Assembly (NCBI GenBank): GCA_964016885.1
Contig: OZ024740.1
Span: forward strand, 113,150,001-113,214,000
DNA from: Eledone cirrhosa
Taxonomy: Eukaryota
Length of the DNA: 64,000 nucleotides
Direction of reading: 5' to 3'
The notes under the pieces: model-generated
The model's database searches: none
What the model saw: only the letters and a program-made list of their open reading frames with translations
Told to the model about the DNA's origin: nothing
Made by a program: the position numbers and the translations under genes
Shown: piece after piece, positions 2,633-63,228 of the stretch
Layout: each line of letters starts with the position of its first letter
How positions within the stretch are numbered: the first letter of the stretch is position 1

Positions 2633-2911
2633 GATTTCATTTATTGGCCACAAGGGCCGACATGTAGGGGACAATACAAAGACAGGGACAGTGGGGGGTT
2701 TACAATAAGGTGGAGTAAAAGTGCACAATGGCAAGACTAATTTAACAATGAAGATATAAAAATATAAAATAAACTATGCATAAATACAACAAATAAATTC
2801 CCCGATAGGGGGTGGACGACCCTGGGGTGACTCGGGTACCCCACCAATCCAGAACCACCCGGCGCTTCTAGGGCACCCAGGGAGAGCACCCCTCTCCTCA
2901 AGTTAGCTAGC

Positions 2912-5900: not shown

Positions 5901-6145
5901 CATTCCAGTCCCCCGCTAACAGTAAAGGCCGAGACGTACCCAGAAAGGTCTCCAGGCGCCTAAATAAGTCCGGTCGTCCGGCCCCTGTAGGGGCGTAGAC
6001 GGCCAGCAGTCTAAAGGCACCACCTTCGCTACTGCTCACATCCAAGACCACAAACTTACCGTCCGGGTCCCGGAAGATCGACCTTACCTCGAGATCTAGT
6101 CCTTTCCTAAACAACACTGCCACCACACCACCCATTCCCGGTGAG
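2912..6145 (-). pseudogene. Tx1 copy A ORF2 (EN-RT-CCHC), frameshifted, N-terminus deleted
   Basis: Pieces in ORFs 5881-6183, 5087-5848, 4302-4976, 4148-4528, 3833-4117 and 3192-4076; ends NGPTLTIRL*. Confidence 0.85.
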
Positions 6146-7535
6146 TTTTCTGTTTTTTTTTGCACTTTTGGGTTTTCCTTCATCTTCGCTGCTGGAAGAC
6201 AAATGGTCTGTGGCTGTGATTGTCTCTGTGTCTGTGTGTGCGTTTAATGTTTTGTCTATGTGTATAATTGGGGGGGGGGGTATGGGGAGTGGGAGAGCTT
6301 TCCTCGTTTTCCCCTTGGATTGGTTTTGGTGTTGGTGGTGATCCGGCTGTTTTTGATGTTGGTGTCCGTGTCTTTGTTGGTGTTGTTTTTGGTGGTGGTG
6401 GTGGTGCAGCTTTCCGTGCTGACACTGGCGTTGGCAACAAAGGAGGTTTGCGACCCACTGCATTTTTGCGCTGAGGGCAGAATGCTTGCAGATGCGTTGC
6501 TTCCCCGCAGACGAAGCAGTGTGGCCTTTTTCCGTCAGTGATTAGTTGGATTGTTGTCCCGTCCTGCAGGCGGGCAAAATCCGGGAAGTTGTTCATGTCC
6601 TCCGGTTTCATTTGGAGAAGAATCTCCAAATCCATTCCAGACCAGTCCTCTCTCTCTTTCCTTTTGATATCCAGGAGGGTAGTGTTTGTCCCCTCCTCGA
6701 TTACGCATTCCACCAGCCAACATATGTTCATTCCTGGTGGGATGCTGGGAATGCGGACCTTTACTGTCCTTTTACCCATGTAGGACGGATGCATGATAAT
6801 GCGTTCCGTTCTGCAGGGGTCACCGAGTGCTTAATAGCAAGGGCCTCGGTTTTGAACAGTACCGAGATGGTACCGAACTGTTTGCCTCTTGCTTTATACA
6901 TTATGTTACTTCCGATGTACTCCAAAGCATCGTCGACCTCTGCTTGGCTGGCAAGTTCCACTTTTCGTGTCTGCACCGAAATGCATTGAAAGTACACCGT
7001 CCTCCTTTGCATGGCCGCTGTTGCCCCGTCCGGGATGGTCAGGTTTGCCCGTTTAATTAGCCTCCACGCCTGGGCCAACTGTTCGTCTTTATCGCTAATA
7101 TCAATATCCAATAAGCGCTTTGTTTTGCTGCAGCAAATGTGGTGTTTCTGATGCTCTTGTTGGTGTTGTCATTCTAGCTGCTGTTATTTGTGTTGTTGTT
7201 TTTGTTTTGTTTGTTGTTGCTGTTGTCACCACCTCCATGTTTACATTGAAGCTGTCGGTGTTATTGTCGTTATTGCTCTGAGTTGTTGTTGTTGTTGTGG
7301 TGGTGGTGGCGGTGGTGGTGGTGGCGGCGGTGGTGGTGGTGGTGATGTCGTTTTCAGATGATACTGCTGCTAACACAGAAGATTGTGATAGTAGCTTTTT
7401 AGTTTTGCCTTCACATTCAGTAGAGTGGACGACAGGCTTGTCTATAGCAGTCGTAGTCGTGGTGAAATCTACAGTGGCTGCTTTTAAACTTTTGACATGA
7501 AAGTTCTTTACCGTTTCAAGGTAGAAAATTTCCAT
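6146..7535 (-). pseudogene. Tx1 copy A ORF1 (gag-like nucleic-acid-binding protein), disrupted
   Basis: GKRPHCFVCGEATHLQAFCP (C-x2-C-x4-H-x4-C), Thr/Asn-rich N-terminus and Pro/Thr-rich tail. Confidence 0.8.
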
Positions 7536-7734
7536 GTTTTTTTTTGGTGGGGAAGCGATTTTTTTTCGAAGTTTTTTAAAATAAATCTGAATATTCGGGC
7601 TTAAAGCCCGAATATTGAGAGGTATCCCTCTCTTGAAACCAAGATGTGTACCTTATGTTTCGTTAACGACAAGAAAATGCAAAAAGTTATACTTTAAAAC
7701 AGCTTAAAGTTACGAATCTTTTCCCCCGCAAAAT

Positions 7735-7994: not shown

Positions 7995-8806
7995 CATCGA
8001 CGAAAATCAACTAGCCAATCTCTTCGGAAGCACTTTCGGGCCGGGGCCTATGGACAACTTCCAGAAATCCCTGGCCTGGCAGTGCTACCGGGGAGCTTTG
8101 CCAGTTCGGGATAAACTCTACAAACATGGAGGTGCCGTCAGCCGGGCATGTCCGAGATGCGCGCATGGCGACGAAACCGTCCTGCACGCACTCGTCCAGT
8201 GTTCGAGCATTGCTGACTTGTGGGTTTATGTCGAACACCTGCTGTCACGTGTAGGACGGATCCAGCTATCAGCTGAGTCCATCGTGAGGATTGCCCCGCC
8301 CTCTTCCTTTAGCCGGGAAGGGCAGGCAGTTTTTATCTGTCTGGTGGCCATGGCGAAAGAGATAGTATGGTGGACACGTTTGAAAGGGCTGAAGACGAGC
8401 ACTTACCTCTTCGGTGATGCCCTGATTAACTTTTTCAAATTTCATTTGAAAAGGAAAATCAGGGTAGAGAGGGAAGTTCTCTCTTCCCAGCATTTTGTTG
8501 AAAGATGGGTGAGAGAAGCAAGTATGGCCCGAATGAATGGGCCTTCTCTGAGTATGTGTCTGTAAATTAAAGGTGGAAAACTGGGAGAGGGCACTTGCCC
8601 TGGTGGTCAGGGTCACTGTGGTCTTTTAATGGGCTTGCTCCACAAATGTCCCTCGGAAGTCTCCCCCCTATTGGGGAATTTTTCTTTGTTATTTTATTAC
8701 ATCCTCTGTTTTTTACACGCAGAAATGCCCATTTGTACCGTCCTGTATTGTCCTGTACTGTCCTTAATGTCTACTTTATGTAAACCTTTGTGGTTAATAA
8801 AGAAAA

Positions 8807-8807
<1 letters not shown>
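7995..8807 (+). mobile_element. 5'-truncated Tx1 copy (ORF2 C-terminus + 3' UTR), same subfamily as copy C
   Basis: Colinear and highly similar to 21852-22680; CPRC...ETVLHALVQC; ends AATAAAGAAAAC + (ATT)n. Confidence 0.92.

Positions 8808-8849
<42 letters not shown>
8808..8849. repeat. (ATT)n linker between two Tx1 copies
   Basis: Directly visible. Confidence 0.95.
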
Positions 8850-9030
8850 GAATGCCATGGTTTACGGAGGCTCGGCTCTGTAAGGTATAGTAATTTTTAA
8901 ACGCTATAACAATTGTAAATTGTTTAAAACTTGAACCAAATTGTAGATAAAACACCTTCGTCCTCGTGCGAGGGGTCTTTCTGCCCGTTATTTGGCCCTT
9001 CGGGGTGAAATAACCGCTTATTAGGGTTTT

Positions 9031-11159
9031 GTGCCTAATATTCATTTTAAACCGAAAAAAAAACATGGCTACAAAAAAAATGTTCACAAGTCACTCCCAC
9101 TCTTTCCGTCTTCTTCCTCAATCGTCATTACATCAGAGAGAAGATTGTCTCTCTCCCTCCCTTCTCTAAATGTGGTGTCGCCTCTTTCGCAAGCGACGCC
9201 AGTAAAGAAAAAGAAAAATATAGTTTCTGGTAGCTTTCACCAAGAGAACGTGCATACCGTGGAACATTTCTCCACGACGACGACAACGACGAAAAATGTG
9301 TGCGGTAAATACGGAAAGTCATTTCATACGTCTGACGTCATGAAGAATAGCAGCAGCAGCCGTAATAACAGTAGGAGCAGCAACAGTGACAAGGAAAACA
9401 CTAGTAGCAGCCGCAACAACACCAGCAGCAGCATAAACAACAACAGCAGCAGCCTCAACAGCAACAACAACAGCAGCAGCAGCAACAACAACAACAACCA
9501 CAGCAATAGCGGCGGCGGCGGTCGTAGTACCAGCAGCAACAACAAAAGTAACAGCAGCTCTGTCAACAACAACAACAACAGCAGCAAAGAAAAACCAATC
9601 TCGTCTGCAGGTATCGCAAAGAACCTGGAAATCATCCGTATAACAAATGAGGAATTACAGGAAGCGAAGTCGAAAACCGGACACCGAGCAATCTGCAAGG
9701 CAGCCGAAAAATGTTTCGAAACCCAACAGCACTGTACGGTCACGTACCGTACAGTAAGCACAAAGTCACGTAGGGTTGAAAGAGCCACAGAGTCTCCAAT
9801 ACAAAAAGCCTTAGGGTCTGTGTGGCAGCGGAAAACGCATATCACCCGAGGCAAGAAATATGCCACCGTGGACGTGCTTTTGCCACACCCCAGGAGGCAA
9901 AGGCTCAATCCTTAGTGACCATAAGGAGCGAGGAAATGGTGTTGGTGCCCTCGTACTGCGGGCAAAAAGTTGTGAGGGTTAAACTGACCCCCCCCCCCCC
10001 GGGTTGGCCCATTCTTGGCAGGCCGCGTCTGTCCTCGTCGGAATCGAGGACAAAACAACTGTACTGCAAGTACAGAAAAAAGTACGAAACGATTGGGTCG
10101 GCGCCTCGATTGAGAAGTTAATTCAGGAGTGCATTGAAGCTATCTCGAATGTGATAGTCTTCGATAACGGCACTCAACTGCCCATAAGTGTTGAGGGCAA
10201 ACGCCCGAAATGCTTTCGCTGTGGGTCGAAGACTCACCTCAGGGCCTTCTGCAATGAGAAGACCCTGAGAAATGAGAAAACCCCCCTCCTTCCGAAACCG
10301 GCTCCACTGCTACCAGCAACAGGACAGGCGGCAAGCAGGAAGGATAGGTCCGTGGCACCCATACCCACGCCACGGAAATCAAGAACAGCAACAGCAGTGG
10401 AAGTATTAACAATAACAATAATAATACCAACTACAGCTGCAACAGAGACTCCACTGCAACCATCACTAACAAGAACAAGTGAAAGAGTGCAGCTGGTACC
10501 CCTCCCCGACCTCACAGAATCGGACACGGAGTGTGAGGTGGGAGAGGGATGGCAAAACGTCGCAAGAAGGCACAAACGTAGAAGCAGCGCATCGTCGCCT
10601 TCGAAAAGGAGGAGAAGAGATGAAAAAATGGTGAAGGATACTGCAAAGAGACTGACAGCAGCAACACTACCAACACCATCACTACCCACACTAGCACTAC
10701 CATCACCACCGGCCACAACCCCACCGCCAACAACAACAACACCTTCAACACCACCACCACAAGCACCAACATCGCAAACACAACAACAAAACACACAGAC
10801 ACAGCACCAACGACAAGAAAATAGGAGAACCACAACCCCACCCCCAGAAAAAGAAATGCACAACAATAAATACACACAACAAGAAACTAATGACTTACAT
10901 AATTGAACACACAGACATTTCACAGCACGACTACATAATACTAGCACCAATCAAAACACCAACGAACATAAGACTGGTAAGAATATCACAGAAACAATAC
11001 ACAAACATTAAAATGAAATTCCCCGACGCAGTTGGTGATTTCAGAGACCTAGGAGGGACACTCAACCGGAGAGTATACTCGGATAAACTCACAGACGAGC
11101 CGACGACCAGCCGAAGGGACGATACAACGGTCCCTTCACCAGACGATCAAGGTAAGTGA
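9031..11159 (+). pseudogene. Tx1 copy B ORF1, frameshifted
   Basis: ORFs 9031-9915, 9822-10121, 10004-10906 and 10890-11159; homologous motifs to ORF1 of copies A and C (TVxYRT...SRRVERA; PSYCGQ; CCHC). Confidence 0.8.
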
Positions 11160-11191
11160 TACTTTCTCACTTGCCCCGTTCCTCACCCAAC

Positions 11192-14100
11192 ATGGCTGTA
11201 TTCAGGATCGGAAGTGTAAACGTGCGTGGCTTGAGATCGGATTGGAAACAGGGTCACTTGCTTAACGACCTCAGATCACTAAACATAGATGTGGTGGCCA
11301 TCAACGAGACCAGAATCTCCGAAACGCAAGCTTTCGCACCGATCTTCGACGGTTACGAGGTGTACGCATCTCCGTGCCGTCCTGGAGCGGGGGGCGCAGT
11401 GGTTGTGTTGGTCTGGAAAGGCTTGGGTCTCGCCATACGGACCATCTTCCAGGACCCAGAAGGTAAGTCGGTGTGCTGGACGTAAGCGGCACAGAAGGCA
11501 ATGCTTTCAGGCTAGTAGCCCTCTATGCCCCGACATGGGCAGGACGGCCAGATTTCTTCAGACGTCTAGAGACCTTTCTTGGAACGTCCCGCTCTTTAGT
11601 GTTAGTGGGCGACTGGAATTGTATCTTGGATGCATGCTGGGATTGTGTGGGGCCAGTGGGTAGGGGAGGAATGTGCAAGAGCCTCACCAACCTGCTCAGA
11701 CGCTTTGAACTGTCTGACAGGTATCGACTGGATCACCCGGATGTGCCAATGTGGACATGGACAAACCGCATCGGGTCATCCAGATCGTATCTCGATAGGG
11801 TATTCTGCAGAGAACTAGATAAGGGTAGCATAAGTTGTCGACAATTTAAAATAGTCGACAGACTTCATAGACAAGGGCCCGGTTACTAGCAGCTGAATGC
11901 GTCTTTCCCAGCGCGCAAAGCCTAGAGAAACCGGATTAGCGGATTAGTTAAGCGGGCGTTGACGGGAGCGGTCGTCAACAACAGGTGGTGGTTCGTCCTG
12001 AAAAGGGCAATTAAAGTAGAGTTGATTAGGTTTAGCAAAGGAGTAGTGATAGAGAAAAAATAGAGTAGAGGGAGAGCTAGTCAGAAAGCTAGAAGAGGCG
12101 TTTAGGACAGGCATCGCAACCGACATGTTTGCGGCGAGATTGGCACTCGATCAATTCTTCAACGCAAGACACGAAGGCTGCGTTGTCAGAGCTAGAACGC
12201 GTGCTCTGAAATACGAGGGGACAAAAGCCGTCCAATGAGCCCCGGTGGCAGAGGCGCGAAGTGGCAACAAAGCCACAATTCAGTCTTTGTCTGACCAAAA
12301 CGGGTGCGTGATGCTCGAATCCGAGCGGATGTGTGAAGCCTTTCAGCAACACTTTGCTGAACTGTTCGGGAGCAGCGGCGGAACGGATTGGGGAATGGAC
12401 TTCAGTGCATACCTCGACGGACTGCCTCGGCTCTCGACGACCGCAGTACAGTGTTGCAAAAAAACCAATAACAGCCGGTGAAATATGGGAAGCGATGGCT
12501 ACCTGCACGAGGGGTAAATCGCCAGGTTTGGATGGTCTGCCCTACGAGCTTTATGCATTTATGCCAGACTTGTTCGGTAACCTCTTGGCAGACGTCTACT
12601 GCAACTGGCAGCAGAACGGGAGCATTCCCAGTTTTGTGAGCCGGGGAGCGGTGGCGCTGCTGAGAAAAGACCCGAACAAGGGGATGCTATCGATAATTTC
12701 AGGCCCATAAATCTGCTAAACGCAGTGTTCAAGATTTTGGCCAAGGTGTTAGCAACGAGGTAGGCGCTTGTCGTCAAGGGTCTGGTGGGAAAGGCGCAGA
12801 CATGCGCCATTCCGGACAGATCCATACACGACAACCTCCACCTCATGCGATATATCATAGAGAGGGTGGTTAAGGAACCTGGCACGGGTGGAGCCCTGAT
12901 CAACTTGCATCAATCCAAAGCATTCGATAGGGTCGCTCATCGGTACCTGGCAGCGGTCATCGAGGCAGCCAGTTTCGGGCCCGTTTTCAGTGGATGGATC
13001 ACAGCGCTGTACAGCGACATCTGCTCAGTTGTGAGGGTGAACGGTCACCTGTCGCAGCCGTTCAGAATCATGCGCTCAGTTCGCTAGGGTTGTACCCTCT
13101 CGTCCCTCTTGTACGTATTGGCTCTCGAGCCGTTACTGCACAAACTGGGGGCGATGAGGGGCGTCCCACGCGAACTAGGATGCGGGAGATCCGAGTCGGC
13201 TTGCACCGACGACGTTACCGTTGTGGTGTCGAGCACCAGACACGTCCAGATTCTCGGCACCGTTCTCAAGGAATACGAAGCTGTGACAGGAGCAAAGATA
13301 AACCAGGAAAAGTCAGTGGGCTTGCAGCTCGGCAACTAGAGAGGCAAGTTCATGCCGTCCGACAGCGTCGTGGGGCCTTGGACGGATGGACCGCTTAAAT
13401 TGCTCGGGGTCTGGTTCGGACCGGATGGAGAAAAATGGAACGATGTGGCAAGGTGGCCTCCCTCACCCAGAAATGAGCCGAGAGGAAGCTGTCACCGAAA
13501 GGACAGGCCGAGGTGGCGAATGCGTACATCGAATCCGTCATCTGCTACCGCCTCACCGTCGTCCGTTGCTCCGGCCCAACTCTCACCAAAATGGAGCGCC
13601 TCCTCTTCCGCTTTTTGCGGAAGGGACGCGCTCCCATGGTCAGACGATCCATTTGCTGTCAACACCCGTTGCGTGGAAGACTGGGCATGCCATGGCTGAT
13701 GATCCGCAAACATGCACTGAGGCTGCGACATCTCTGGTACTTCCTTGACGGTGAACAGGTGTGGTCGCCGTTCGCCAGGCACGTTTTCCCACAGCTCGTC
13801 TCCTTGACGGGGCTGCAGTCCTGGCTCAGAAAAAGACCGAGGGATAGCGCTTGGAAACTGGAATGTCTCCAGGCGCTCACTGCCCTCTGCCAGCTGGGCA
13901 TCAGTATCGGGAGAACATCCACCTCGGCACATCCACCTCGGCGTTCTATAGAGAACTAGTGGAGGGGAAGAGCGACGACGTTCTCGGAGAGATACTGGGC
14001 GTCGAAGAAGATCAACTATTTGTTCTCTTCCGGAGAACTTTCAGCCCAGGTCTATGGATAACGTCCAAAAATCCCTGGCCTGGCAGTGCTACCGGGGAGC

Positions 14101-14565
14101 GCTGCCGGTTCGAGATAAGCTCTACAGGCATAGAAGTGCCGTCAGCCGAGCCTGTCCGAGATGCGCGCAGAGCGACGAAACCGTCGTGCACACACTCGTT
14201 CAGTGCCCGAGCATTGCTGACTTGTGGAGCCATGTCGAACAGTTGCTGTCGCGTGTAGAACTGATCTGGTTATCGACTGAGTCCATTGTGCAGATGGTCT
14301 CGCGGTCTTCCTTCGAGGAGGAAGGGCAGGCGATTTTCATCTGATGGCCATGGCGAAATAGATTGTGTGGTGGACAAGATTGAAAGGGTTAAAGACAGAC
14401 ACTTTCCTCTTCGGCGAATCCCTAATTAACTTTTTCAAGTTTCACTTGAAGAGGAAAATCAGGGTGGAGAGGCAAGTGCTGGCTTCTAGCAAGTTTGTTG
14501 AAAGGTGGGTGAATGTAGCGAGAATGGTCCGAGTGAGCGGGACCGCTCTGAATATACGTCTGTAG
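11192..14565 (+). pseudogene. Tx1 copy B ORF2 (EN-RT-CCHC) with multiple stops and frameshifts
   Basis: NVRGL, AINET, VGDWNC, KSPGLDGLPYE, HQSKAFDRVAH, ACTDD (YADD equivalent), CPRC...ETVVHTLVQC. Confidence 0.88.
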
Positions 14566-14878
14566 TTTGAGAAATGGAAAAATTGAGAGAGGGCGCTTGC
14601 CCTGGTGGTCAGGGTGGCCGTGGTGTTTTGTGTGGTTTTCGCCACGAGTAACCCTCGGAGGTTCTCCCCCCTATTGTGGGATTTTTTCATTGTTTCAATT
14701 TTCATTTTTATTGTTTATATATATATATTTCTATGTCCTTTTTTTCTTTTCTTACATAATAAAAATATTTACACGCACAAAACCCACATCGTACCGTCCT
14801 GTGCCATCTGTAATGTTTTTCTTGATGTCACCCCTTGTGGCCAATAAAGAAATCATCATTATTATTATTATTATTATT

Positions 14879-14962: not shown

Positions 14963-17126
14963 ACAGCTGCATTTATCTTGCTTTATATTTATACGAGTTA
15001 TCACCAAATCACAACCAGTGACCTCAAGAGACAACAAGGTTCGCCATGTTCAAGAAAGAACATATATACACACACATGCATCTTTAGGTGTTTAGACTTG
15101 TGATGTACTTATATTGACAGAATCTTCCTTAGTATATGGGCAGTTCCCATTAGTACTACCTTTTGTATTTCTCCTATACGCGGGTTTCCTGGGATTTGCG
15201 ATAAGTAATCATTAGACCCCTTAGGTATCATTCCTAGAGCGCCTACAACCACTTGTATTGTTTTAGTTCTCAATTTCCACAATTTTCCAATTTCTATCTC
15301 CAGGTCCTTATACTTACTCAATTTTTCAAATGTTTTTATAGATACATTCTTGCCTATTGGAACGGACATATCATTTAGCAGGCATACCCTCTTTTTAAAG
15401 TCCTTCAATATTATATCAGGTCTATTTGCATCTATTTTTCGGTCTGTTTGGATGCTAAAGTTCCACAAGATTGAGATGTGATCTTTTTCAAGTATGGGAG
15501 GTGGTTGATGCTCCCACCAATTCTTTTGATGGGGCAGGTCAAAATGCTTACACATTATCCAATGTATGTATTGTGCAGCTCTGTTATGCCTGTTCAGGTA
15601 TTCGGTTGGGGCTATAGGACTGCACATTGAAATTATATGTTCAATGGTCTCTGGTTGTTTTTTTCATACACGGCATAATGGGCTGCATCCATTTTTTATT
15701 ATGTTGGCTTGGTAATTTTTTGTTGGCAGACACTGATCTTGTGCTGATATAATCAGGCCTTCAGTCTCCGATTTCAGTCCAGAGGATGCCAACCACTGAT
15801 GGGTTAAAGTTTTGTCAACATCAGGATTGTAAGCTCGTTCTGGGTATTTTCCATACAGAGGCTTTTCTTGCCATTTCTTAGCCAGTTTCTGTAGCAGTTC
15901 TTTCTTTGCAGTTACTTTTACCTGCTTTGCTTTTTCTGTGTTTTCCATTTCAGCAGTAAATGGGACTTCTGAAATTTGTAGTCCATTACTGTATCTTTGT
16001 GCATCTTTTGTAATGGAGTATGATCTTTTGATGCTTTCGTGTTTCAAAACGAGTTTGATCATCCAATCATGTGATTCCCTTAGATATGCCAATTGTTGCA
16101 GTTTTCAACGCAATGTCTAACTGGATTAACCCACGTCCTCCTTCTTTCCTAGGGAGATATATTCTATCTGTATCTGCCTTAGGGTGATGCATTCTGTGCA
16201 TGGTTTGGAATTTTCGAATTTTTGTATCGAGCCTACGGATCTCTGTGCTTGACCAGTTGATGACATTGTAACTATAGGTTACTACTGGTATGGCAAGCGT
16301 GTTTATGGCATCGATCCTATTCCTTGCATTCAATTCCGTTCTTAAGATTGCTCTTACTCTGCGGTAACATTCCTTCCTTATCCTTTCCCTGATTGTCGAG
16401 TGCTTGATTCCGTCTCCTTCACAAACAATATTTGTAAGTTTCCTCTTGATCAAGTTCTCTTATCACATTCCCACGATCAAGATTAATGTCTGAACTTTTC
16501 AGCAGCTTTCCTCTGGTGAACGTTGCTTTGGCGCATTTATCTAGTCCAAACTACATTTTAATGTCATCACTGAACTGCTCCACAGTGGATAATAGCCCTG
16601 CAATTGTTCATAATGTTTTGCAAATAGTTTCAGGTCATCCATGTAGAACAAGTGATTAATGGTTTTGTCATAGACTTTATATTCATGTTTTGTTTCATTG
16701 AGCATTTTACTTAATGGTATAAGTGCGAAGCAGAATAAAAGCGGTGATAAAGAGTCACCCTGAAAAATTCCACAATTAATATTAACTTCTCCAGCTTCCA
16801 GTGATTTTGTTTCACTATTCAAAAGGAGTGTCGTTTTCCATGTCTTCATACTGAATGACAAAAACCTCCTGACAACGGGAGATATTTTGAAAATCTCTAA
16901 ACATTTTTCAATCCAACTGTGAGGCAAACTATCGAATGCTTTTATATAATCTATCCAAGCAATTGATAGATTTTTGTGTCTATTATGACAATCTTCTAGT
17001 ATCATTTTGTTAACCAAAAGCTGATCCTTACAGCCATATGAGCCTCGTTTACACCCTTTCTGCTCAAAGGGAAATAGGTCATTTGTTATCAGGTGGTCAT
17101 ATGTATATTCAGTTAGGACTGATGTT
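14963..17126 (-). mobile_element. R4/Dong-type RLE LINE, 5'-truncated (RT + CCHC + restriction-like endonuclease)
   Basis: AWIDYIKAFDSLPH, GIFQGDSLSPLLF, HLFYMDDLKLF, LYLPRKEGGRGL-like motif, YLNRHN, RPDIILKD...DMSVP, KLSKYKDL; (AAT)n tail on the sense strand and (ATT)n at both ends. Confidence 0.92.
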
Positions 17127-17151
17127 TATTATTATTATTATTATTATTATT
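17127..17151. repeat. (ATT)n linker between the Dong-type and Tx1 elements
   Basis: Directly visible. Confidence 0.95.
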
Positions 17152-17366
17152 GGCGACCTACGTAGTAATTCGTATTATCGTGAGCTCCGCAAAGGTCTGT
17201 TATTTTCAGTTGTTTAAAATTGCCATTTATGGAAAATGTTTATGTTAACTGTAGATAAGTGCACATACATTGTTATCTGAAAAGGACACTCAAAAAGATT
17301 GGGGCCTTAAGCCCAAAATTTAAACTTTTATAATTATCAAACAAACAATTTTTCTTTGAAAAAATC

Positions 17367-19290
17367 ATGGACGACGCAGAGTCAAACCTTTCTCTCAAAC
17401 TAACACCTCACACCGACACCACCATTGTAAATATTACTACGTTTGCCAACACTAAAAATATAAGCAGTAGCAATATTTTAAATTTGTCTCAGGCAGACAT
17501 TCATTTCCCGCCATTACCAATGAGTGCAGATGTTGAAGCCGCCACCCCACCACCACCACAACGACAACAGAAACAAAAGTAAAAAATAAATTATCTCGTG
17601 ATATCGAAATGAATTCACCCAAAATGAACTTTTCCACACCGAACACCGCTGACGCCACCACCACCACAACTGAAACTAAAATTAATAACAAAAATAACGA
17701 TAACAACAACAGCAACAATGAAATTAAGAAAACCACACTGTCTTTTGCCAGAGTAGCAGAAAAGTGCGAAGCATTCCAGGTAACTCAGGAGGAATTAGAA
17801 GAAGCCAAAAGAATGGTAAAGAAAGATGGGTACAGGATCAGCCCCCCCACACACACACCTAATAAAATGGAGCATCGGCGCCTATGCACCGTGCCTTATC
17901 GGACGATTCACATAAAATCGCGCCGAGTGGAACGGGCATCCGAGACCCAAATCCAAAAAGCTTTCGGACATGTGTGCGCAAAAAAACCCACATCAGACGT
18001 GGGCAGAAATATGGAACCGTGGACGTGTTCTTTGAAACACCACAGGAGGCCAGAGAATACTCCATGGCCCCATTAAGAAGTGACGACTTCACACTCGTCC
18101 CAAGCTATTGTGGCCAGAGACACGTGAAGATCAGGGTGACCCACGTTCCACCGGCCATCGAAATTCCATGGCTAATGGCTGCCGTCCTCACCGGCATCGA
18201 GGCCAACACCAAGATAATCGAAATAGCGAAAGAAAAGCAGGAGAACTGGTCCGGATCTGGGATGGAGCTCCTGATCCAAGCGGACCAAAAAAGCATTGAG
18301 GAGATCCCAACGGTAATAGACCTCACTGACGGCAGCCACCTCACCGCAATCGTCGAGGGCAGAAGGCCTAGGTGTGCCGTTTGTGGTGAAGGAACCCACC
18401 TAAGGGCTTTCTGCTCTCACAGCTAAAAGGTTGAGGCCACCTCCCTTACCCACCCCAGTGACTAAACCGTCAACACTACCAGCAGCAGAAATGGCAGCAA
18501 CAACTGTAGCAGCAACAACAGAAGCAAATGTAACACAACAACCCCAGCAACAGTAGCAAAACCACCACCACCACCACCCAACGCGCCAGAACTAGCACCA
18601 GCGCCTACACCATCCACCACGCCACAACCAAAACAACGCCTCTGGAGGATTTTCCACTCCCCGACCTATGGCAACTGGGGACAGATTGTGACGACGAGGA
18701 GTGGGAAACGGTATCAGGTAAAAAGAAAAAAAGAAAAGGAAACCAAAAAAGAAAAAAAATCCCCTTCCTTCCCCCTCCAAAAACAAAATACAGAGGGAAA
18801 CAAATAAACTATCAAACAAAAAAGATAGGACAGATATGCCACGACCCACACCAGCATCGCCAACCCCATCACCACAAACACCAACACCATCACCATCATT
18901 AACCCCAACACCACCATCACCAACACCACAAAAGTCACCAAAAAGCGAAACAAACAAACCCACAACAAACGCAAACAATACAAAACAACCAAAACGATAC
19001 ACACTACACAACATTAAATTTGAACAACAACCAATTATTACACTAGATCCAACACAACACCAGCATCACAGAAAAAGACTACGTAACAACCCAAAAGTTC
19101 ACACCACCTCCGCACATACAAATCACTCGCATCACACAGAAAACGTACACGACACTAAAACAAAAATTCCCCAAAGACATCGGAGACTTCCGACAAGCAC
19201 TCTCCAGGAGGATTTATAAGGACATCCTTCCGGAGGGGGCCACAAGCAGTGAAAAGGATGGAGAAACCATCCTTCCTCTACGAGAAGTAA
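17367..19290 (+). pseudogene. Tx1 copy C ORF1, disrupted
   Basis: ORFs 17367-17582, 17609-18076, 17884-18426 and 18836-19219. Confidence 0.78.
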
Positions 19291-19328
19291 GGTAAGTATG
19301 TTTCCCATCTTTTCCACTCCATTTCAAC

Positions 19329-22300
19329 ATGACCTCACTCAGAATAGGCAGCATAAATGCGCGTGGCTTGGGGACGACATGGAAGCAGAGCCACCTACTC
19401 AATGACCTCAGGTCACTAAACATAGATGTAGTGGCCATCAGCGAGACCAGAATCTCCGAAGCACAGGCCTTCGCATCGATGTTCGGCGGCTACGATGTGT
19501 ACGCATCTCCCAGCCGTCCTTGATCGGGGGGAGGAGTTGCTGTGCTTTTTCGAAGAGGTTTGGATCTCGCCATACAGGCCATCTTCCTGGACCCAGAAGG
19601 TAAGTTGGTGGTGCTGGACGTGACCAACGGAGACGGGCAAGATTTCAGGCTAGTGGCCGTCTATGCCCCGACAGAAGCAGGGCGGCCTGATTTCTTCCGG
19701 CGTCTGGAGACCTTTCTTGGAACGTCCCGCACTTTAGTGTTAGTGGGCGACTGGAACGGGATCTTAGATGCACGCTTGGACTGTGTGGGATCAGCGGATA
19801 GGGGAGGAGGGTGCAAGAGCCTCACCAACCTGCTCAGGCGTTTTAAACTGTCTGACATGTACCGATTGGATTTCCCGAATGTGCCAATGTGGACTTGGAC
19901 AAATCGCATAGGGTCATCCAGATCATATCTAGATAGAGTATTTTGTAGGGAAATAGATAGGTCTAGCATAGGCTGTCCACATTTCAAGATAGTCTGCTAC
20001 ACGGACCACAAATTCGTGATCTGTGTGTTTGACTTAGATAAGCTTCATAGACGAGGACCCGGCTACTGGAAGCTAAACGCGTCCTTACCAGCGCACAAGG
20101 CCTACAGAGACCGGATTAGCTAACTAGTTAAGCGGGCGTTGACGGGTGCCATCGTCAACAAGTGGTGGCTTGCTCTGAAAAGAGCGATTAGAATAGAGTC
20201 CATTAGGTTTAGTAAGGCTTTAGCAATAGAGAAAAATAGAGCAGGGGGAGAACTAGTTAGAAAATTAGACGAGGCGCTTAGCAAAGGTATCACGACCGAC
20301 GTACTTGCGGCGAAATTGGCCCTTGACCAATTCTTCAATGCAAAGCACGAAGGCTGCGTTGTCAGAGCTAGGGTGCATGCTCTCAGACACGAGGGCAGGA
20401 AAGCCGTTCAATAGGCCGGAGTGGCGGAGGAGCGTCATGGCAACAAATCCACGATCCGGTCTTTGGTGGACCACGACGGGCGCATGCTACTCGATCCCGA
20501 GCAAATGTGTAAATCTTTTCAGCGACACTTCGCACAGCTGTTCGGGGGCAGCGGCGGGCCGGGTCGAGGTATGGACTTTAGTGTCTACCTCGACGGACTG
20601 CCGCGGCTCTCGGCCACTGAGGCGGATTTTTGCGAAAAGTTGGTAACAGCCGCTTAAGTACGGGAGGCAATGACTGGTTGCACAAGGGGTAAATCGCCTG
20701 GTTTGGATGGTCTGCCCTATGAATTTTACCTACATATGCCATACTTCTTCGGCGGCTTCTTGGCGGACGTCTACTGCAACTGGCAACAGAACGGGAGAAT
20801 TCCCAGCTCTGTGAGCCGAGGAGCTGTGGAGCTGCTGAGAAAAGATCCGAACAAGGGGGATAACATAGATAATTTCAGGCCCATAACTCTGCTAAACACA
20901 GAGTTCAAGATTTTGGCCAAGGTGCTAGCAAAGAGGTTGGCGCTTGTCGTTGGTCGTCTGGTGGGAGAGGCGCAGACATGCGCCATTCCCGACAGATCCA
21001 TCCACGACAACATCCACCTCATGCGATACATCGTAGAAAGGGTAGCTAGGGAACCTGGAACGGGTGGGTCCTTGATCAATTTAGATCAGTCGAAAGCTTT
21101 CGATTTTGTCGACCATCGTTACTTAGCGGCAGTCATGAAGGCGGCCGGCTTTGGGCCCGTCTTCAGAGGCTGGATCGCTGCCATGCACAGCGACATCTGC
21201 TCTGTGGTGAAAGTGAACAGTCACCTTTCAGAACGGTTCAACATCATGCGCTGGGTCCGCCAAGGATGTCCTCTCTCGTCCCTCTTATACGTATTGACTC
21301 TCGAGCCATTACTGGACCGGTTAAATTGCTAGAGGTCTGGTTCGGTCCGGAACTCCAGACGGACAAAAACTGGGATGAGGTGACGAGCAGGGTGGCTTCT
21401 CTCATTTACTACCGCCTGGCCGTTGTATGTTGTGATAAGCCCCGCCTGACTGCGCTGGAGCGTTTGCTCTTTCGCTTTTTGTGGAAGGGACGCGTTCCGA
21501 TGGTCAGACGGTCCATCTGCTGTCAACACCCGCTACGTGGAGGGCTGGGCATGCCGTGGCTGATGATGCGCAGACACGCGCTCAGGCTACGACATCTCCA
21601 CCTCTTCCTCGACGTTGATCAGGTGTGGTCGCCGTTTGCTAGACGCGTCTTTCCCCAGCTCGTCTCCTTGACAGAGCTGCAGTCCTGGGTCAAGCGAAGA
21701 CCGAGAGGGAGCGCTTGGAGACTGGAATGTCTTCAGGCGCTCACAGCCCTCGACCAATCGGGCAATGTGATCGTTGGAGACTCAACCTTGGCGTTCTATA
21801 GAGGATTAGTGGAGGGGAAGAGCGACGACGTACTTGGAGAAACTCTATGCGTCGACGAAAATCAACTAGCCAATCTCTTCGGAAGAACTTTCGGGCCGGA
21901 GCCTATGGACAACTTCCAGAAATCCCTGGCCTGGCAGTGCTACCGAGGAGATTTGTCAGTTCGGGAAAACTCTACAGGCATGGAGGTGCCGTCAGCCGGG
22001 CATGTCCGAGATGAGCACAGGGCGACGAAACCGTCCTGCACGCACTTGTCCTGTGTCTGAGCATTGCTGACCAGTGGGTTTATGTCGAACACCCGCTGTC
22101 ACGTGTAGGACGGACCCAGCTATCAGCTGAGTCCATCGTGAGGATTGCCCCGCCCTCTTCTTTTAGCCGGGAAGGGCAGGAAGTTTTTATCTGTCTGGTG
22201 GCCATGGCGAAAGAGATAGTATGGTGTACACGTTTGAAAGGGCTGAAGACAAGTACTTACCTCTACGGTGATGCTCTGATTAACCTTTTCAAATTTCATT

Positions 22301-22419
22301 TGAAAAGGAAAATCAGGGTAGAGAGGGAAGTTCTCTCTTTCCAGCATTTTGTTGAAAGATGGGTGAGAGAAGCAAGTATGGGCCGAGTGAATGGGCCTAC
22401 TCTGAGTATGTGTTTGTAA
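19329..22419 (+). pseudogene. Tx1 copy C ORF2, disrupted
   Basis: EN 19329-20123, RT 20670-21310, C-terminal 21266-22419; YADD segment missing. Confidence 0.87.
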
Positions 22420-22696
22420 ATTAAAGGCGGAAAACTGGGAGAGAGCACTTGCCCTAGTGGTCAGGGTCACTGTGGCCTTTTAATTGGCTTTCTCCACAAA
22501 CGTCCCTCGGAAGTCTCCCCCCCCCCCCCTATTGGGGAATTTTTCATTGTTTGTTTTTGTTACATCCACTGTTTATGTTTTTTTACACGCAGAAATGCCC
22601 ATTTGTACCGTCCTGTATTGTCCCGTACTGTTGTCCTTAATATCTACTTTATGTAAACCCTTGTGGTTAATAAAGAAAGCATTATTATTCTCCTTC

Positions 22697-35054: not shown

Positions 35055-35079
35055 GTTATTATTTAAATATAAAAACAAA

Positions 35080-38973: not shown

Positions 38974-39043
<70 letters not shown>

Positions 39044-39055
39044 ATATCTATCTAT
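38974..39055. repeat. (ATCT)n upstream of Tx1 copy D
   Basis: Directly visible. Confidence 0.95.
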
Positions 39056-39285
39056 TGTTTTACTTGAGACGTGTGCCAGCTCGCTGGTAAGTTTTTGTTG
39101 ATTTTCTAAGTAAGAAATCAAAAATTTATTGTTAAATTTATTACTATTTTATAGCTTGACCCCACGTCTGGACTTTCAGACGGGTGTGGGTCAAGTCATC
39201 TTCACCCCTCCCTGGGGTGAAATTTTCGTTTTGGAAAAAACATTTCGCCGGTGAAAAAAAGTGTAAACAAACCTTGCATTCAGTC

Positions 39286-41170
39286 ATGAACGCTGCGTTC
39301 ATAACTAGAAGTGGTGGAGAGGCGGTAAGAATGTTAAGCTCGCAGTCACCTCCCCTAACCACCTCATTGAAAGACACCGAAAATGTCGTCAGTTTTGAAA
39401 ACACGATGTCGGACGTTGATTGTAACATCAACACTAACACAAACACCAATAACATGCAAAATATAAACAACACCAACCAGAACAACAACAACAACAACAA
39501 CATCAATGACAACAAGAACAACAACAGCAACAATGATAACAACAACACCACCAACAACAACAGCAACACGAACAACTCCACGAACAAGGAAAAGATTTCC
39601 TTTGCTCAAACCGTCCAAAAGACGGAACTGTTCACATACCTTGACATTTCCAATGCTAGGGAAATGTTAAGCGATGCAAAACAGTACGTAATTTTTGGTG
39701 AGAGTGGTGCTTTCAGCGTCACTTCTCAACAGTTACGCAAAGAAACTGTTCTAAAAACAGTAATTTTTAGGACGGTTTCAAATGTGTCGAAAAAACCAGT
39801 TCAATTATCCCAAAACGATATTGAACTGGTTCTGAAGAATTCAATGAAGGATATTGCCTTCATCCAAAAAGGGAAACGTTTGGGAAGCATTTCGGTGTTG
39901 TTGAAAGACTAATTGACAGCACAAAAATATTCTGTATCGCCGATTGTGTCCCCCCTTTACACCTTTTTTCCCACATATATGGGAAAAAGAACATAAAAAA
40001 ATAAAAATTTAGAACATTGCACCAAATGTAAACGTCTGGTGGATTCTAACTGGCTTCATCGATTTCGACGAAGACACCATCATTTCGGTGGGAAAGTCTT
40101 CCAGAGGCACATTCAATGGTACAAGCATAGAAGTTCTGGTCCAAATGAGGCCAGAACGGATAGCTAAAATACCCCAACGTGTGCCTCTGGATGGAATTTC
40201 ACACATAAACATTTCTGTTGAGGGTAGGCGGCCTTCATGTTACCACTGTTTAAGCAGTAGTCACCTGAAGGCTTACTGTCCTCGGTTAACTACAAAAAAA
40301 AGAGGCACTACTGCCAACACCCAAAACAATAACACAACCACTACCACGACGACCACCACCACAACAACAACAACACGCAAACACAACCAAAACAAGAACA
40401 ACAAACCAACCTGCAAGCACAGTCCCACCCAGCCCCACTCCACCTAAAACTACTATAAAACACCAACAAACACAACAGCTCACCAAAACATACACCTTCC
40501 AAATAACACAGACACCACAACGGACGAGGCCCCCACATCATCACCAAGTGACGATGGGGGAGAGCCTCTCCGTTCGAAAAGAAAGAAGAAAAGACACCAC
40601 AAGAACAAAAAAACAACAAATATCACTACAAACATACAACCACCAACACAAACAACACAAACATTACAAACAAAAACCCCCCGTCCCGAAAACAAAATCA
40701 CGACATCACTCCAAACACAAACACCTACAACAAAACGAAAGCTCCCACAAGAACAACAGACAAAAACCACCGCAACACAACAAGAACATTACACATGCAT
40801 AAACAGTAAAAAAACCTTTAATCGAGGTCATCTCCAACGACCCTTCGGTGAAAACCGAAGGGAACATTTTTTCGAACTGTGTAGACAAACCTAATTTAAA
40901 GATGATTAGGGTCACTACGGACACCTATAAGTCTTTAAAGGAAAACTTTCCTAAGGACGTGGGTAATCCTTGTGTTAAACCCATTAACCGCGTCCTTTAA
41001 AAACGTTTCCCCACCCTCACCCCAGACACCCCGACCCCACCAAACATCTCCGTCCCTACCCAACCGGAAACAACCACCCACCCAGACAACCCCTCTAACA
41101 CCCCCATGGAAACCGTGCGGCCTGATCCCCGGGAGACGAAGAGGTGAGTCTTTTCATCTACTCTTCTTTT
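39286..41170 (+). pseudogene. Tx1 copy D ORF1, disrupted
   Basis: Asn-rich N-terminus, KISFAQ, GKRLGSISV, CCHC knuckle near 40235, AC-rich tail; start codon uncertain. Confidence 0.72.
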
Positions 41171-41187
41171 AACTTTTCAGAACCAAC

Positions 41188-44100
41188 ATGGCCAATATAA
41201 GAGTTGGATGTGTTAATGTACGCGGCCTGGGGATGCCCTGGAAACAGGGCAAACTCTTAAACGACCTCAGGTCGCACAGTATGGATGTAGTAGCCATTTG
41301 CGTGTCCAGGATCCACAGCGAGCGACAGCTGGCCCCCATCTTCGATGACTTTGAGATCTACGCATCTCTCTGTCGGCCGGGGGTGGGTGGGGGGGTGGGG
41401 GGTTGCCGTTTTGCTGCGGATACACCTAGGCCTCGTAACACAGACGGTACATCTGGACCCGGAGGGTCTACTGGTGGTACTAGACGTTGACGGTAGTGAA
41501 GGTGGAGCCTTCAGGCTGGTGGCCGAATATGCCCCATCCGGAACACCGCGGCCAGACTTCTTCAAACGTCTAAAGACTTTTCTGGGAACGTCCCGCTCCT
41601 TGATTTTAGTGGGGGACTGGAATGGAATCCTAGATGGACGTTGGGAGCATGTCCCGATAAAGGGGGGTGTAACAGCCTCAAAGAGTTGATCGGCCGATTT
41701 GACCTGGCCGATAGATATCGACTAGATTTTCCGACTGTGCCATTGTGGACGTGGACTAATCGTAGCGGAACATCTAGATCGCACCTAGATAGGGTTCTAG
41801 TTAGAAATAAGGATAGGGACATGTTGAGCTGTCCACAAATGTCCATGGTTGCCTATTCAGATCACAAACTAGTGACCTGCATAGTCAACCTTGATAGAAC
41901 CCATAGACAAGGACCCGGTTACTGGGAGCTGAATTTGTCCTTACCGACATGCAACAGTAGACGGATTAGCACTTTAGTTAAACAGCACTTGACAGGGGCT
42001 ATTCTCAACAACAGATGGTGGTACTCTCTCAAGAGGGTAGTTAGATCAGACTCGTTAGTTTTTAGTAAAGAATTAGCGTTAGATAGAAATAGAACCGAGA
42101 AGGAACTGGTAGATAAAGTAGAAGAGGCAATTAGAAGTGACAACATAGCCAGCGTGCTAGCAACGAAAACGGCCTTGGACCAGTTCTTCGACGCAAAGCA
42201 CGAGCGCTGCGTTGTCAGAAGCAAAATACGTGCTCTGGCAAACGAGGGAGCCAAAGCTGTTAGCTGGGCCCGAGTGACGGAGGCAAAAAGTGGCAACAAG
42301 TCCCACGATTCGGTTTATGAAGGACCCAAACGGACGCGTGATACGTGAGCCGAAGCAGATGTGTGCAGCCTTTCAGCGGCACTTTGCTCAACTGTTCGGG
42401 CAGGGCGGCGCGCCGGGAGTGGCTATGGATTTCGGTCCATACTTGTACGGCCTACCGCGACTCTAGGACAGCGAGGCAAAGTTCTGCGAAAAGCCGATTT
42501 CAGCCGCTGAGATAGGGGACGCGCTGAGCCAATGCGGCAAACTCAAATCTCCACGTCTCGACGGTCTACCCTACGAATTTTACGTAGCAATGCCGGACTT
42601 ATTCTCCGGTCTCCTGGAAGCGGTCTGCTGCAACTTGCAACAGAACGGGAGAATTCCCAGTACTGTGACCGGGGGAGTAGTCACACTAGTCAGGAAGGAC
42701 GAGAATAAGGGAGATGACATAGGCAACTTCCGCCCCATAAGTCTGCTAAACACAGAGTTACAGATTTTGGCCAAGGTGTTGGCAAAGAGGCTGGCGCTTG
42801 TCGTCGAGAACCTGGTTCATACACGACAACCTCTACCTCATACGATACACCATAGAGAGGGTAGGGTGTAAACTCGGCTGCGGTGGGGCCTTGATCAACT
42901 TGGATCAGTCTAAGATAGGGTTGACCATCGTTACCTGGATGCGGTGCTCGAGGCGGCAGGCTTCGGACCCGTGTTCAGTGGCTGGATTGCTGCAATGCAC
43001 AACAGCAACATCTGCTCAAGGGTCAAGGTGAACGGCTACCCCTGGAGCCGTTCCATATCACGCGATCCATCCGACAGGGATGCCCTCTTTCCTCCCTTCT
43101 GTACGTACTGACTCTCGAGCTACTACTGCGGAAGTTGGAGCTATTGCCGGGCATCCCTCTGGAACCGGGACTGCGGAAAGTGGCGTCGGCCTACGCCGAC
43201 GACGTGACAGTAATGGTGTCGAGCGCCTCGCAAATCGAGGAAGTCGGCACCTTACTGAAGGAATACAAAAGGTTCACAGGAGCGAAGCTGAACCGGGACA
43301 AGTCTATCGGTTTGCAACTCGGATGATGGAGAGCCAAACCGATGCCTTCCGATGGCGTCGTCGGATGCTGGACGGAAGGACCAGTAAAGCTGCTCGGGGT
43401 CTGGTTTGGTCCGGACCTCCAGGTGGAGAAGAACTGGAACGGCCAAGGTGTTTGCACTCACCCAGAAGTGGGCCGAGTGCAAACTATCCTTGAAAGGTCG
43501 AGCGGAAGTGGCGAACCCTTTTATAGCGTCGGCCATCTACTACCGCTTGACCGTCGTGCCTTGTCCAGCCAAAACGCTCACCAAAATGGAGCGCGCGCTC
43601 TTCCAATTCCTTTGGAAGAGGCGGGCTCCTTTGGTGAGAAGATCTATCTGCTGCCAACACCCTTCCAACGGATGGCTGAGGATGCCGTGGCTGACATTGC
43701 GCAAACACGCGCTCAGGCTGCGGCATCTCTACGTATTCCTCACATGACAACCGGTGTGGGCCCCGTTCGTGAGGCGAGCCTTCCCACGACTCGTCTCGCT
43801 GACCGATAGCAGTCCTGGGTCAAGCAAAGACCGAGGAACATGGGCGACTGGCACAACGAATGTGCTCAGGCGCTCACAGCCCTCTGGCAGGCGGACCTGG
43901 CGATCAGTGGAGACTCCACTTTGTCATTCTATAGAGGGTTGATCCGCAGCAAGTGCGACGACACGCTCGGTGAAACTCTAGGCGTAGAGGAAGACGAACT
44001 GGCCAGTCTGTTAGGTAGGACCTTCCGCCCGGGACCGATGGACAACTTCCAAAAGTCCCTGGCCTCGCAGTGCTACCGAGGAGCTCTACTAGTTCGAGAC

Positions 44101-44373
44101 AAGCTCTACAGACATGGGCGCCCGGGCAAGGACGCTGCAAAAAAGTTCTGTCTGAGGTGCGTGCGAGACGAAGAAACCGTCGCGCACGCATTAATACACT
44201 GTCCGCGCGTCACCGACCTGTGGGGCTATGTAGAACGACTATTGTCGCGGGTGGGACCAATCCGGTTGACCACCGAGTCCATTGTCATGATCAAACTGCC
44301 ACCCTCCTTCAAAAACGAATGAGAGGCGGTTTTCCTTTGTGCGATAGATATGGCGAAAGAGGTTGTATGGTGG
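41188..44373 (+). pseudogene. Tx1 copy D ORF2, disrupted and interrupted near its C-terminus by (ATCT)n
   Basis: EN/RT/Zn motifs across ORFs 41188-44322; homology stops at ...KEVVWW. Confidence 0.86.
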
Positions 44374-44379
44374 GCATCC

Positions 44380-44427
<48 letters not shown>

Positions 44428-44560
44428 GTCTCCCTCTATTGGGGAAAATTGACTAACTTTTAAATTCCATCTGTGATAACATTTTACACGTTTTTATTGT
44501 ATGTAAACTTCCCCCTTTGTATTTGTCCCCTTCTTTTGTGCCCCTGTGGCTAATAAAGAA

Positions 44561-44563
44561 ATA

Positions 44564-44614
<51 letters not shown>

Positions 44615-44676
44615 ATAGTTACATCTCAATCACTCTCACTCCTTCCCCTGTCCCTCTTCTTCCCTCTTTACTTCTC

Positions 44677-45082: not shown

Positions 45083-45280
45083 GGTAACAAATAAATAAAG
45101 TTAACTAGAACTTCAAAAATAGATACCTTTTAATGATTAATGAGACGAAGCAGCTATGATGTGTAAAAACAACACGTGGTAACGGCCAGTTGAAGATTTT
45201 GACTCGAAGTGTAAACATGGATTGCTGGAATATTGTTCTTCCTTGTTGATAATCCAATAATATCCACTTTCTGTGACTTA

Positions 45281-45330
45281 CCATCTGATTAATTGGTGAA
45301 ATATATTTCTTTAATGAAATATATTCAGGG
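45281..45330 (+). ncRNA. Hammerhead-like motif, copy 1 (CUGAUUA variant)
   Basis: CCAU-CUGAUUA-[AUUGGUGAAAUAUAUUUCUUUAAU stem II]-GAAA-UAUA-UUC-AGGG; palindromic AAUAUAUU. Confidence 0.55.
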
Positions 45331-45848
45331 AAGATTAATCATTAAAAGGTATCTATTTTTGAAGTTCTAGTTAACTTTATTTATTTGTTACCTACTAGCC
45401 ATGCGTGGTTACACGCTTGTAAAAATTATCTCCTGTGATTATTCATGTTTATATTTATTTATATATATGTTGATCAATTTCTAGTTATTATAAAATGCTC
45501 GCACCTACAAAGTCTTTGAGCTTATTTTCCGGGCGATATGGCGCACGCCGTTAAGGCATGACACCCACAATTTCGATTTAGATTGAATTCATTTAATTTA
45601 TCTTAATTTTGGATATAGATATATAAATACGGCTCCTTAATTGTAGAGCTAACTCTGTTGAAAGGAATTGACTGGTATTTCTAGTTGTCGAATACCTATT
45701 CACACCACTGAGACGAAGCCGCTATGATGTGTAAAAACAACACGTGGTAACGGCCAGTTGAAGATTTTGACTCGAAGTGTAAACATGGATTGCTGGAATA
45801 TTGTTCTTCCTTGTTGATAATCCAATAATATCCACTTTCTGTGACTTA

Positions 45849-45898
45849 CCATCTGATTAATTGGTGAAATATATTTCTTTAATGAAATATATTCAGGG
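45849..45898 (+). ncRNA. Hammerhead-like motif, copy 2
   Basis: Identical to 45281-45330. Confidence 0.55.
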
Positions 45899-46117
45899 AA
45901 GATTAATCATTAAAAGGTATCTATTTTTGAAGTTCTAGTTAACTTTATTTATTTGTTACCTACTAGCCATGCGTGGTTACACGCTTGTAAAAATTATCTC
46001 CTGTGATTATTCATGTTTATATTTATTTATATATATGTTGATCAATTTCTAGTTATATATATATGTATATACATATGTGTGTGTGTGTTTAAATATATAT
46101 ATATATATGTATATATG

Positions 46118-47333: not shown

Positions 47334-48257
<924 letters not shown>

Positions 48258-56286: not shown

Positions 56287-56411
56287 CCCCTTTATAGTCT
56301 GTGTTCACATCCCGTTGAGGTTCACTTTGCCTTTCATCCTTACGGGGTCGATAAAATAAAGTACCAGTAAGGTACTGGGTAATTGCTGGCCTTGAGCCAA
56401 AAGTAGAAACA
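56287..56411 (+). mobile_element. SINE family 1, 5'-truncated
   Basis: Core and tail nearly identical to the consensus. Confidence 0.85.
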
Positions 56412-62829: not shown

Positions 62830-63148
62830 TTACCAGTGCAATTTTTATCCCCAGCACCCTCTTTTGTTTTAACATTCAGGTTATGGTTATGTTTTCTTAA
62901 CTTCATAAGGCATACTGTTGGTTGAGGGAATATTAATCAAAAGTACCACATAAAAGTCTACACTGTAGACTCTACAGTTTTTAAGCCAAGAAAGGAACTT
63001 AACATTGTAACTTTAACACAGCTACTGAGCATCCCCGAGCAACGCCGGGCTTTACTGCTAGTTACTGATAAATCCATAACCATCTAATTCCCGACAAGTG
63101 AATTCTCTTCGGCCAGCAGTCTACAAATGTATGCATCTATCTATCTAT

Positions 63149-63227
63149 TTTTTTTTCATATACCTGTATGTTAAACTCCCCATTTGTATTTGTCCCCTTC
63201 TTTTGTGCTCTTGTGGCTAATAAAGAA

Positions 63228-63228
<1 letters not shown>
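63149..63228 (+). mobile_element. 3' stub of the Tx1 copy-D subfamily between (ATCT)n tracts
   Basis: TTTGTATTTGTCCCCTTCTTTTGTGC..TGTGGCTAATAAAGAAAT matches 44516-44562; (ATCT)n at 63135-63148 and 63228-63283. Confidence 0.85.

Follow-up and report, generated by a model that had tools for sequence, protein, structure and literature searches.

The genome of Eledone cirrhosa carries a large group of long interspersed nuclear elements (LINEs) in which each family inserts into its own type of repeat, one clade of families using (ATT)n, another using (ATCT)n, and a further family, here called E, using a single point of a 72-bp tandem repeat. Four copies, A to D, lie in the stretch analysed here (the window), which comprises 64,000 nucleotides of assembly GCA_964016885.1 (contig OZ024740.1, positions 113,150,001 to 113,214,000 of the forward strand). 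A sequence-only reading of the window had described copies A to C as users of (ATT)n and copy D as a member of a sister Tx1 subfamily that had switched to (ATCT)n, and had placed candidate specificity residues in a loop of the endonuclease. The ATT/ATCT target split is real. The role given to the loop requires revision: family E carries the same loop as the D family and inserts elsewhere.

Results

D-type 3′ ends occur 6,173 times genome-wide, and the control returned 0. In the first 100 by position on contig 1, counted by hand, ATCT follows 98, and an ATT run, the 72-bp site, and poly(A) follow none, so that the diverse flanks that would have spoken against a target-specific D subfamily are not what this sample contains. 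Poly(A) was likewise absent after all 100 ends in a listing of unfiltered ends. In the loci examined, a sample that includes loci chosen for their off-target ends, 200 of 248 distinct 3′ ends could be assigned to a family. ATCT-type sequence follows 101 of the 103 ends in the ATCT clade (76 long and 25 short, the other 2 being of other types), ATT-type sequence follows 79 of 79 ends in the ATT clade (60 long and 19 short), and all 18 ends of family E lie in the 72-bp repeat; the short classes are permissive.

The opposite junction tells the same story. A 5′ junction is visible at 197 of 282 ends, and the matching repeat is found there in 75 of 99 cases in the ATCT clade, 56 of 85 in the ATT clade, and 13 of 13 in family E, against backgrounds of 1.2% and 6.3%; a junction of the wrong class appears in one row each way. 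Counting against the assignment are the 5′ junctions left unclassified (23 of 99 in the ATCT clade and 28 of 85 in the ATT clade), some of them because the references are incomplete. Truncated copies of the ATCT clade have the matching repeat on their 5′ side in 63 of 85 cases, and full-length copies can be stacked about 5.9 kb apart. Among 30 candidate target duplications, 12 from the ATCT clade (9-22 bp) and 3 from the ATT clade begin two bases after the motif AAAGAAA, and some contain non-repeat bases; most of the remaining candidates look like the tails of neighbours. Ends that lie off target, in front of (CTT)n, (GTT)n or (CT)n, retain just NN+ATT or NN+(TA)TCT, so the element's own end comprises about two private bases and at most one repeat unit, and several insertions occupy sites with a single ATCT or ATT unit. 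The 5′-truncated copies, the target duplications, and the tandem stacks together indicate that the repeats are insertion sites and not tails. By the criterion given in PMC4494074, a LINE is target specific if more than 20% of its flanks share a sequence type, and the flanks here exceed that share at both ends. Repeat type also tracks the trees of endonuclease (EN) and reverse transcriptase (RT), and the sequence-only reading was correct in seeing a family of target-specific integrators.

One D-like copy lies at a 25-bp minisatellite instead of ATCT (L364:1974-7228; L numbers denote the genomic loci of relatives examined). We also considered whether specialist families exist for (TC)n/(TTC)n or (TG)n/(TTG)n. 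The search covered 654 and 28 overlapping matches sharing the same end motif, with ACT, ATC, and ATAC units and other end motifs excluded; 26 of 28 loci checked proved to be off-target insertions of known ATT or ATCT families, and 2 were unassigned.

By domain content and similarity to L1, we class the elements as L1/Tx1-type LINEs with an apurinic/apyrimidinic endonuclease (APE); the nearest proteins (about 40%) are unnamed. Intact relatives have a first open reading frame (ORF1) of roughly 640 amino acids with a CCHC knuckle and an ORF2 of 1,145 amino acids with APE, RT, and zf-RVT domains; PF03372, PF00078, and PF13966 score above cut-off in the intact ORF2 of L133 and L143. In a search against solved RTs the match to human L1 ORF2p (E = 9e-115) exceeds that to R2 (4e-36), and the best matches in a fold search are to human L1-EN (TM score about 0.75). 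Tx1-clade ORF1 proteins typically have RNA-binding domains and a CCHC knuckle. In ORF1 here CX2CX4HX4C is readable and no Pfam domain matches; atlas look-alikes in zf-CCHC/RRM clusters (0.90-0.92) and a ZCCHC3-like cluster (0.89) provide a lead only. Many relatives carry an intact ORF2. The end motif occurs 30,647 times in the genome, compared with 25 for its reversed control, a count that omits families with an extra motif base. With more than 30,000 3′ ends, the group interrupts many ATT and ATCT microsatellites.

The analysis recovered no fewer than seven families with ATCT targets and four with ATT targets. EN identity between the two clades is 55-67%, and what had been taken for a recent switch between sister subfamilies is instead a separation of deep clades, each of several families. 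A careful EN tree places the ATT families on one side (87/66) and leaves the base open. A quick RT tree, in which window copy C is misaligned and the outgroup is distant, supports an ATCT+E group at 99 and makes family A its sister (99), rendering ATT paraphyletic. A change from ATT to ATCT is the likelier direction, being favoured by the quick RT tree alone. Within clades, recombination has exchanged 5′ untranslated region (UTR)/ORF1 modules and segments of ORF2 among families with the same target, giving two heads for C and two for D (L121, L134, L141-L160, L174, L191, L198, L215); no ATT-by-ATCT recombinant was found among full-length ORF2 copies typed by four segments.

Family E accounts for the 15 of 100 unfiltered ends that are followed by non-microsatellite sequence. 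It inserts at one point of the 72-bp tandem repeat, with repeat on both sides. Exact-match ends at this site number 313, and the first 100 all have E's GTGGCA motif, none being D-, B- or C-type. In both trees E is nested among ATCT families (EN 99/96; RT 95 and 98), which polarises the switch to the 72-bp site, and its identity to D is about 86% in the 3′ part and 83% in EN. On these sequence comparisons, E's target shift is polarised and recent. The 72-bp repeat belongs to a dispersed element with TTAA-flanked CCCTTT termini; in 32 loci, several of them overlapping, the left terminus TTAACCCTT was found in L354, L355, L357, and L362 and the right terminus AAGGGTTAA in L354/L369, L360, L389, L396, and L398. 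Inverted termini that start with CCC and are flanked by TTAA are the hallmark of non-autonomous piggyBac elements, and judging from its termini we take the host to be piggyBac-like. Because 42 of the first 100 matches in one search lay off the 72-bp site, we considered that E might use ATCT as well. This idea was rejected on the basis of 30 loci, in which all 23 true E copies lie in the 72-bp repeat and the 7 copies in ATCT belong to D3/D6.

Some further features of E copies deserve mention. The 13 copies whose 5′ junction is visible are without exception full length; they share the same junction and lack 7 bases of the repeat unit (L349-L362, L369-L398). D copies, in contrast, are often truncated. 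Of the E copies listed on contigs 1-3, most are near contig ends.

The four EN peptides quoted in the sequence-only reading are present as given, and the segment aligns without gaps to the betaB6-betaB5 hairpin of L1-EN (T192-D205); in copy D it reads WTWTNRSGTSRSHLD (41746..41790, + strand). The H in SHLD of copy D is private, occurring in 1 of the 29 loops read at 30 D-EN loci (Y stands in the remaining 28), as is the L in the loop of copy A (1 of 31 loops). At position 196 different ATCT families have T, S, Q or V, so this residue is not diagnostic. Position 194, which aligns to L1 P197, is S in 7 of 8 ATCT/E families (the eighth cannot be read), against I or M in all 4 ATT families. With H private and T variable, the S versus I/M difference is the only feature of the loop that tracks the ATT/ATCT split. 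Across the whole EN, however, 37 positions distinguish the clades, this one included; others are 61-66 (near L1 K70) and 152 (near L1 R155), and several fall in the DNA-facing loops 61-66 and 152-159. E and D differ at 41 of 240 EN residues and have identical hairpin loops, and at 18 EN positions E differs from all ATCT families, none of them in the hairpin. W116 of E adjoins the position equivalent to L1 N118, a lead only. Contacts were not taken from an AlphaFold model (pLDDT 78), the confidence of which is low at 150-162 and 197-199.

Copy D, on the + strand, had been read as one element with (ATCT)n at both ends. The flanking tracts exist, and the 3′ end between them likely has a separate origin. 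Sequence reading places the 5′ junction at a host tract, (ATCT)20, at 38974..39055. By sequence comparison, the 5′ UTR and broken ORF1 (39056..41147) are of a type designated Db, about 70-77% identical to the main Da family and in part about 95% identical to L121/L134, so that the 5′ half is of another subtype than most copies sharing copy D's ORF2. ORF2 (41188..44378; domain and sequence comparison) comprises the APE endonuclease, the RT, and the start of the zf-RVT region; it is 95% identical to intact L133, with 9 internal indels and the 3′ end missing. Comparison with this relative shows the body ending at its position 5416 and the last 136 bp restarting at 5707, with an internal (ATCT)12 (44380..44427) at the place where about 290 bp are absent. 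The 136-bp 3′ UTR stub (44426..44561, Da family) is 99% identical to L133, against 95% for the end of the body, and is followed by an (ATCT)n tract (44562..44615, the start being approximate). From the difference in identity, the gap, and the internal tract, the stub is most likely a separate, 5′-truncated tandem insertion, and copy D most likely a composite of it and the broken body. A second stub, said to share the same 3′ UTR between ATCT tracts, does have the terminal motif; it belongs to another ATCT subfamily, Dc (63148..63228, + strand, 81 bp by sequence comparison; 95-96% identical to Dc and 91% to Da), and is followed by (ATCT)14 to 63283 and preceded by a tract of just three ATCT units.

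In all 8 families inspected (window 41143-41190; L133, L353, L225, L214, L218, L173, L143, L192), a sequence resembling a splice donor, GGTRAG/GGTAGG or, in family A, GGTAAT, is found about 35-45 bases 5′ of ORF2 and is followed by a pyrimidine tract. In copy D the site overlaps the ORF1 stop, which lies inside GTGAGT.

ATT tracts were confirmed at the 3′ ends of copies A, B, and C, and the terminal motif attributed to all four copies occurs in A, B, C, D, the stub at 63148-63228, and one more stub, of C type, whose end is near 8807. Copy A (ATT family A; 2633..7730, − strand) has an internal deletion of about 800 bp, and its 5′ ATT flank is not visible because a repeat resembling a short interspersed nuclear element (SINE) interrupts the 5′ end. 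Sequence comparison identifies the C-family 3′ stub with (ATT)14 at 7997..8849 (+ strand), immediately upstream of copy B (8850..14878, + strand), a mosaic with a C-type 5′ end and ORF1 that is B-type from within EN onward and ends in (ATT)n, and also copy C (ATT family C; 17126..22689, + strand), which has a 5′ ATT tract and a short 3′ ATT.

A different LINE (RVT_1) occupies 14880-17125 on the minus strand, and copy B has inserted into the tract formed by its (AAT)n end; the sequence of this LINE also lies 3′ of copy A and of many further ATT-family copies. The SINE-like repeat, abundant, about 190 bp long, with ATT ends and no tRNA called, often adjoins ATT-family copies; in the window it is found at 7731-7993, 22697-22890, 31332-31485, 34480-35070, 49586-49785, 56277-56423, and 57138-57321. 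There are also local direct duplications at 45141-46061 (353 bp, 99%) and at 47334-48285 (about 470 bp, 85%).

Discussion

How microsatellite targets are chosen by APE-type LINEs was described in 2013 as "not well understood" (PMC3812793). For the elements described here, we consider it probable that the target is chosen by the endonuclease through several DNA-facing loops acting together, probably aided by pairing of the RNA 3′ end, and not by the hairpin alone. The nick would be made in the bottom strand, probably at a T/A step; an RNA with a few target-like bases at its end would anneal to the nicked strand and prime reverse transcription. With AATAAA about 6 bases 5′ of the junction between element and target, transcripts would finish a few bases into the donor's own target. 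Residue 194 of the hairpin (L1 P197) may contribute to the choice between ATT and ATCT, and residues 115-116 (L1 N118, R1Bm Y98), with others, may contribute to E's site. Published work on related enzymes has several contact points in view: base contacts of L1-EN are few, namely P197/H198 in the hairpin, of which P197 touches T+1, and N118 (PMC8565326), and in R1Bm Y98, where L1 has Asn, alters specificity, and N180 also matters (PMC1919474).

Several observations weigh against this account. The EN changes of E near 115-124 show no more clustering than chance would give (778 of 5000 shuffles); the ratio of nonsynonymous to synonymous substitution rates for E's EN, 0.26, equals that of same-target pairs, 0.25, with no positive selection; and F115 is common to E and three ATCT families. 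The register of the nick has an ambiguity of 1 base in ATCT and of 5 bases in E's site; one register gives E downstream bases like D's, so that the hairpin could read the same bases in both. In EN exchanges between TRAS1 and SART1, the EN is reported to determine where insertion occurs (PMC1919474), and pairing of the RNA may therefore add little.

A second explanation moves the choice from the enzyme to the RNA: nicking would be loose, at T/A steps, the fine target would be programmed when read-through donor flank at the RNA 3′ end anneals, and each family would keep the target of its founder. We regard this as rather unlikely, although it accounts for a good deal. The position of AATAAA, a poly(A) signal at the very end of the element, and the absence of poly(A) in either set of 100 ends fit this scheme. 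So does the switch of target by E with its hairpin unchanged and no excess of EN change, and complementarity between RNA and DNA was named by Repanas et al. as a candidate extra factor (PMC1950540). Set against it are the insertions at sites offering only one ATCT or ATT unit, the extent of EN difference between E and D, including a Trp beside the N118-equivalent position, and the finding that Tx1L-EN by itself nicks its own site almost exclusively (PMC1950540). It is correspondingly doubtful that these LINEs are RNA-programmed integrators with a target memory, E having moved from (ATCT)n to the 72-bp repeat with its recognition hairpin unchanged; if they were, the target could be reset by altering the RNA end.

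Less probable still is the explanation nearest to the sequence-only reading, that the hairpin loop is the specificity switch, S versus I/M at its tip reading the bases after the nick. The correspondence of position 194 with the clades, and its alignment to the L1 residue that touches T+1, are what one would expect of such a switch. When the loop of Tx1L (LTx) was grafted, however, specificity changed and the Tx1L site was not recognised (PMC1950540). The single ATT/ATCT split provides no independent contrasts, and the clades are told apart just as well by 36 further EN positions, several of which belong to different loops that face the DNA. Since D and E differ in target although they share the hairpin, the loop by itself is not a sufficient cause of target choice.

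That there is no targeting at all, the repeats being tails made by the element or E spreading passively as its host element duplicates, is very improbable. In its favour, other LINEs often end in microsatellite tails, near-identical tandem arrays hold some of the E copies (e.g., L350/L351), and every E copy with a visible 5′ junction is full length. Against it, the matching repeat is also present on the 5′ side of copies that are truncated, non-repeat bases occur within target duplications, and hardly any repeat remains at off-target ends. In addition, E copies 97-100% alike are surrounded by diverged units, the number of units varies, and there are three main dinucleotides at the junction.

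The genome offers a dozen related families with three targets, a natural series of intact endonucleases for work on target change, and the pair formed by D and E, with the same hairpin and different targets, makes the enzyme-versus-RNA question directly testable.

Tx1 elements that target microsatellites or transposons are already known (Kibi, Koshi, Tx1L, and Tx1-Mar); apparently new here are the (ATT)n and (ATCT)n target clades and E's switch with an unchanged hairpin. Neither ATT/ATCT-targeting Tx1 families nor such a switch was found in the full-text literature searched; Repbase, subscription papers, and supplements may hold them. Dong is an R4-clade element with a restriction-like nuclease, whereas the families here have an N-terminal APE domain. 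It targets (TAA)n (PMC3812793), the same trinucleotide class as families A, B, and C. Human L1-EN (PDB 1vyb, 7n8s, 8sp5) is the best sequence and fold match, with the same hairpin length and catalytic motifs that align; identity is about 20%, however, and L1 has a loose TTTT/AA preference and poly(A) tails where the families here have strict targets and no poly(A). An octopus repeat paper counts 13 L1-Tx1 families as recent, and its available text says nothing about their targets (PMC13282606).

The closest parallels are Tx1 elements. Kibi and Koshi of teleosts insert into (TC)n and (TTC)n, respectively, and crocodilian Tx1 elements into (TTCC)n/(TTTC)n (PMC4494074, PMC3812793); like the families here, these are two-ORF, APE-type, microsatellite-specific elements whose relatives use different units. 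The (ATT)n and (ATCT)n targets, with their more than 30,000 3′ ends, are not listed for Tx1 elements in the available text of those two papers. Tx1L of Xenopus targets Tx1D, a non-autonomous piggyBac element, and Tx1-Mar targets Mariner-N4_AMi (PMC4494074). Family E resembles both in using a fixed site within a dispersed element, in its case one with TTAA-flanked CCCTTT ends. The Tx1L hairpin is two residues longer than that of E, and E, unlike Tx1L and Tx1-Mar, is nested among families that target microsatellites.

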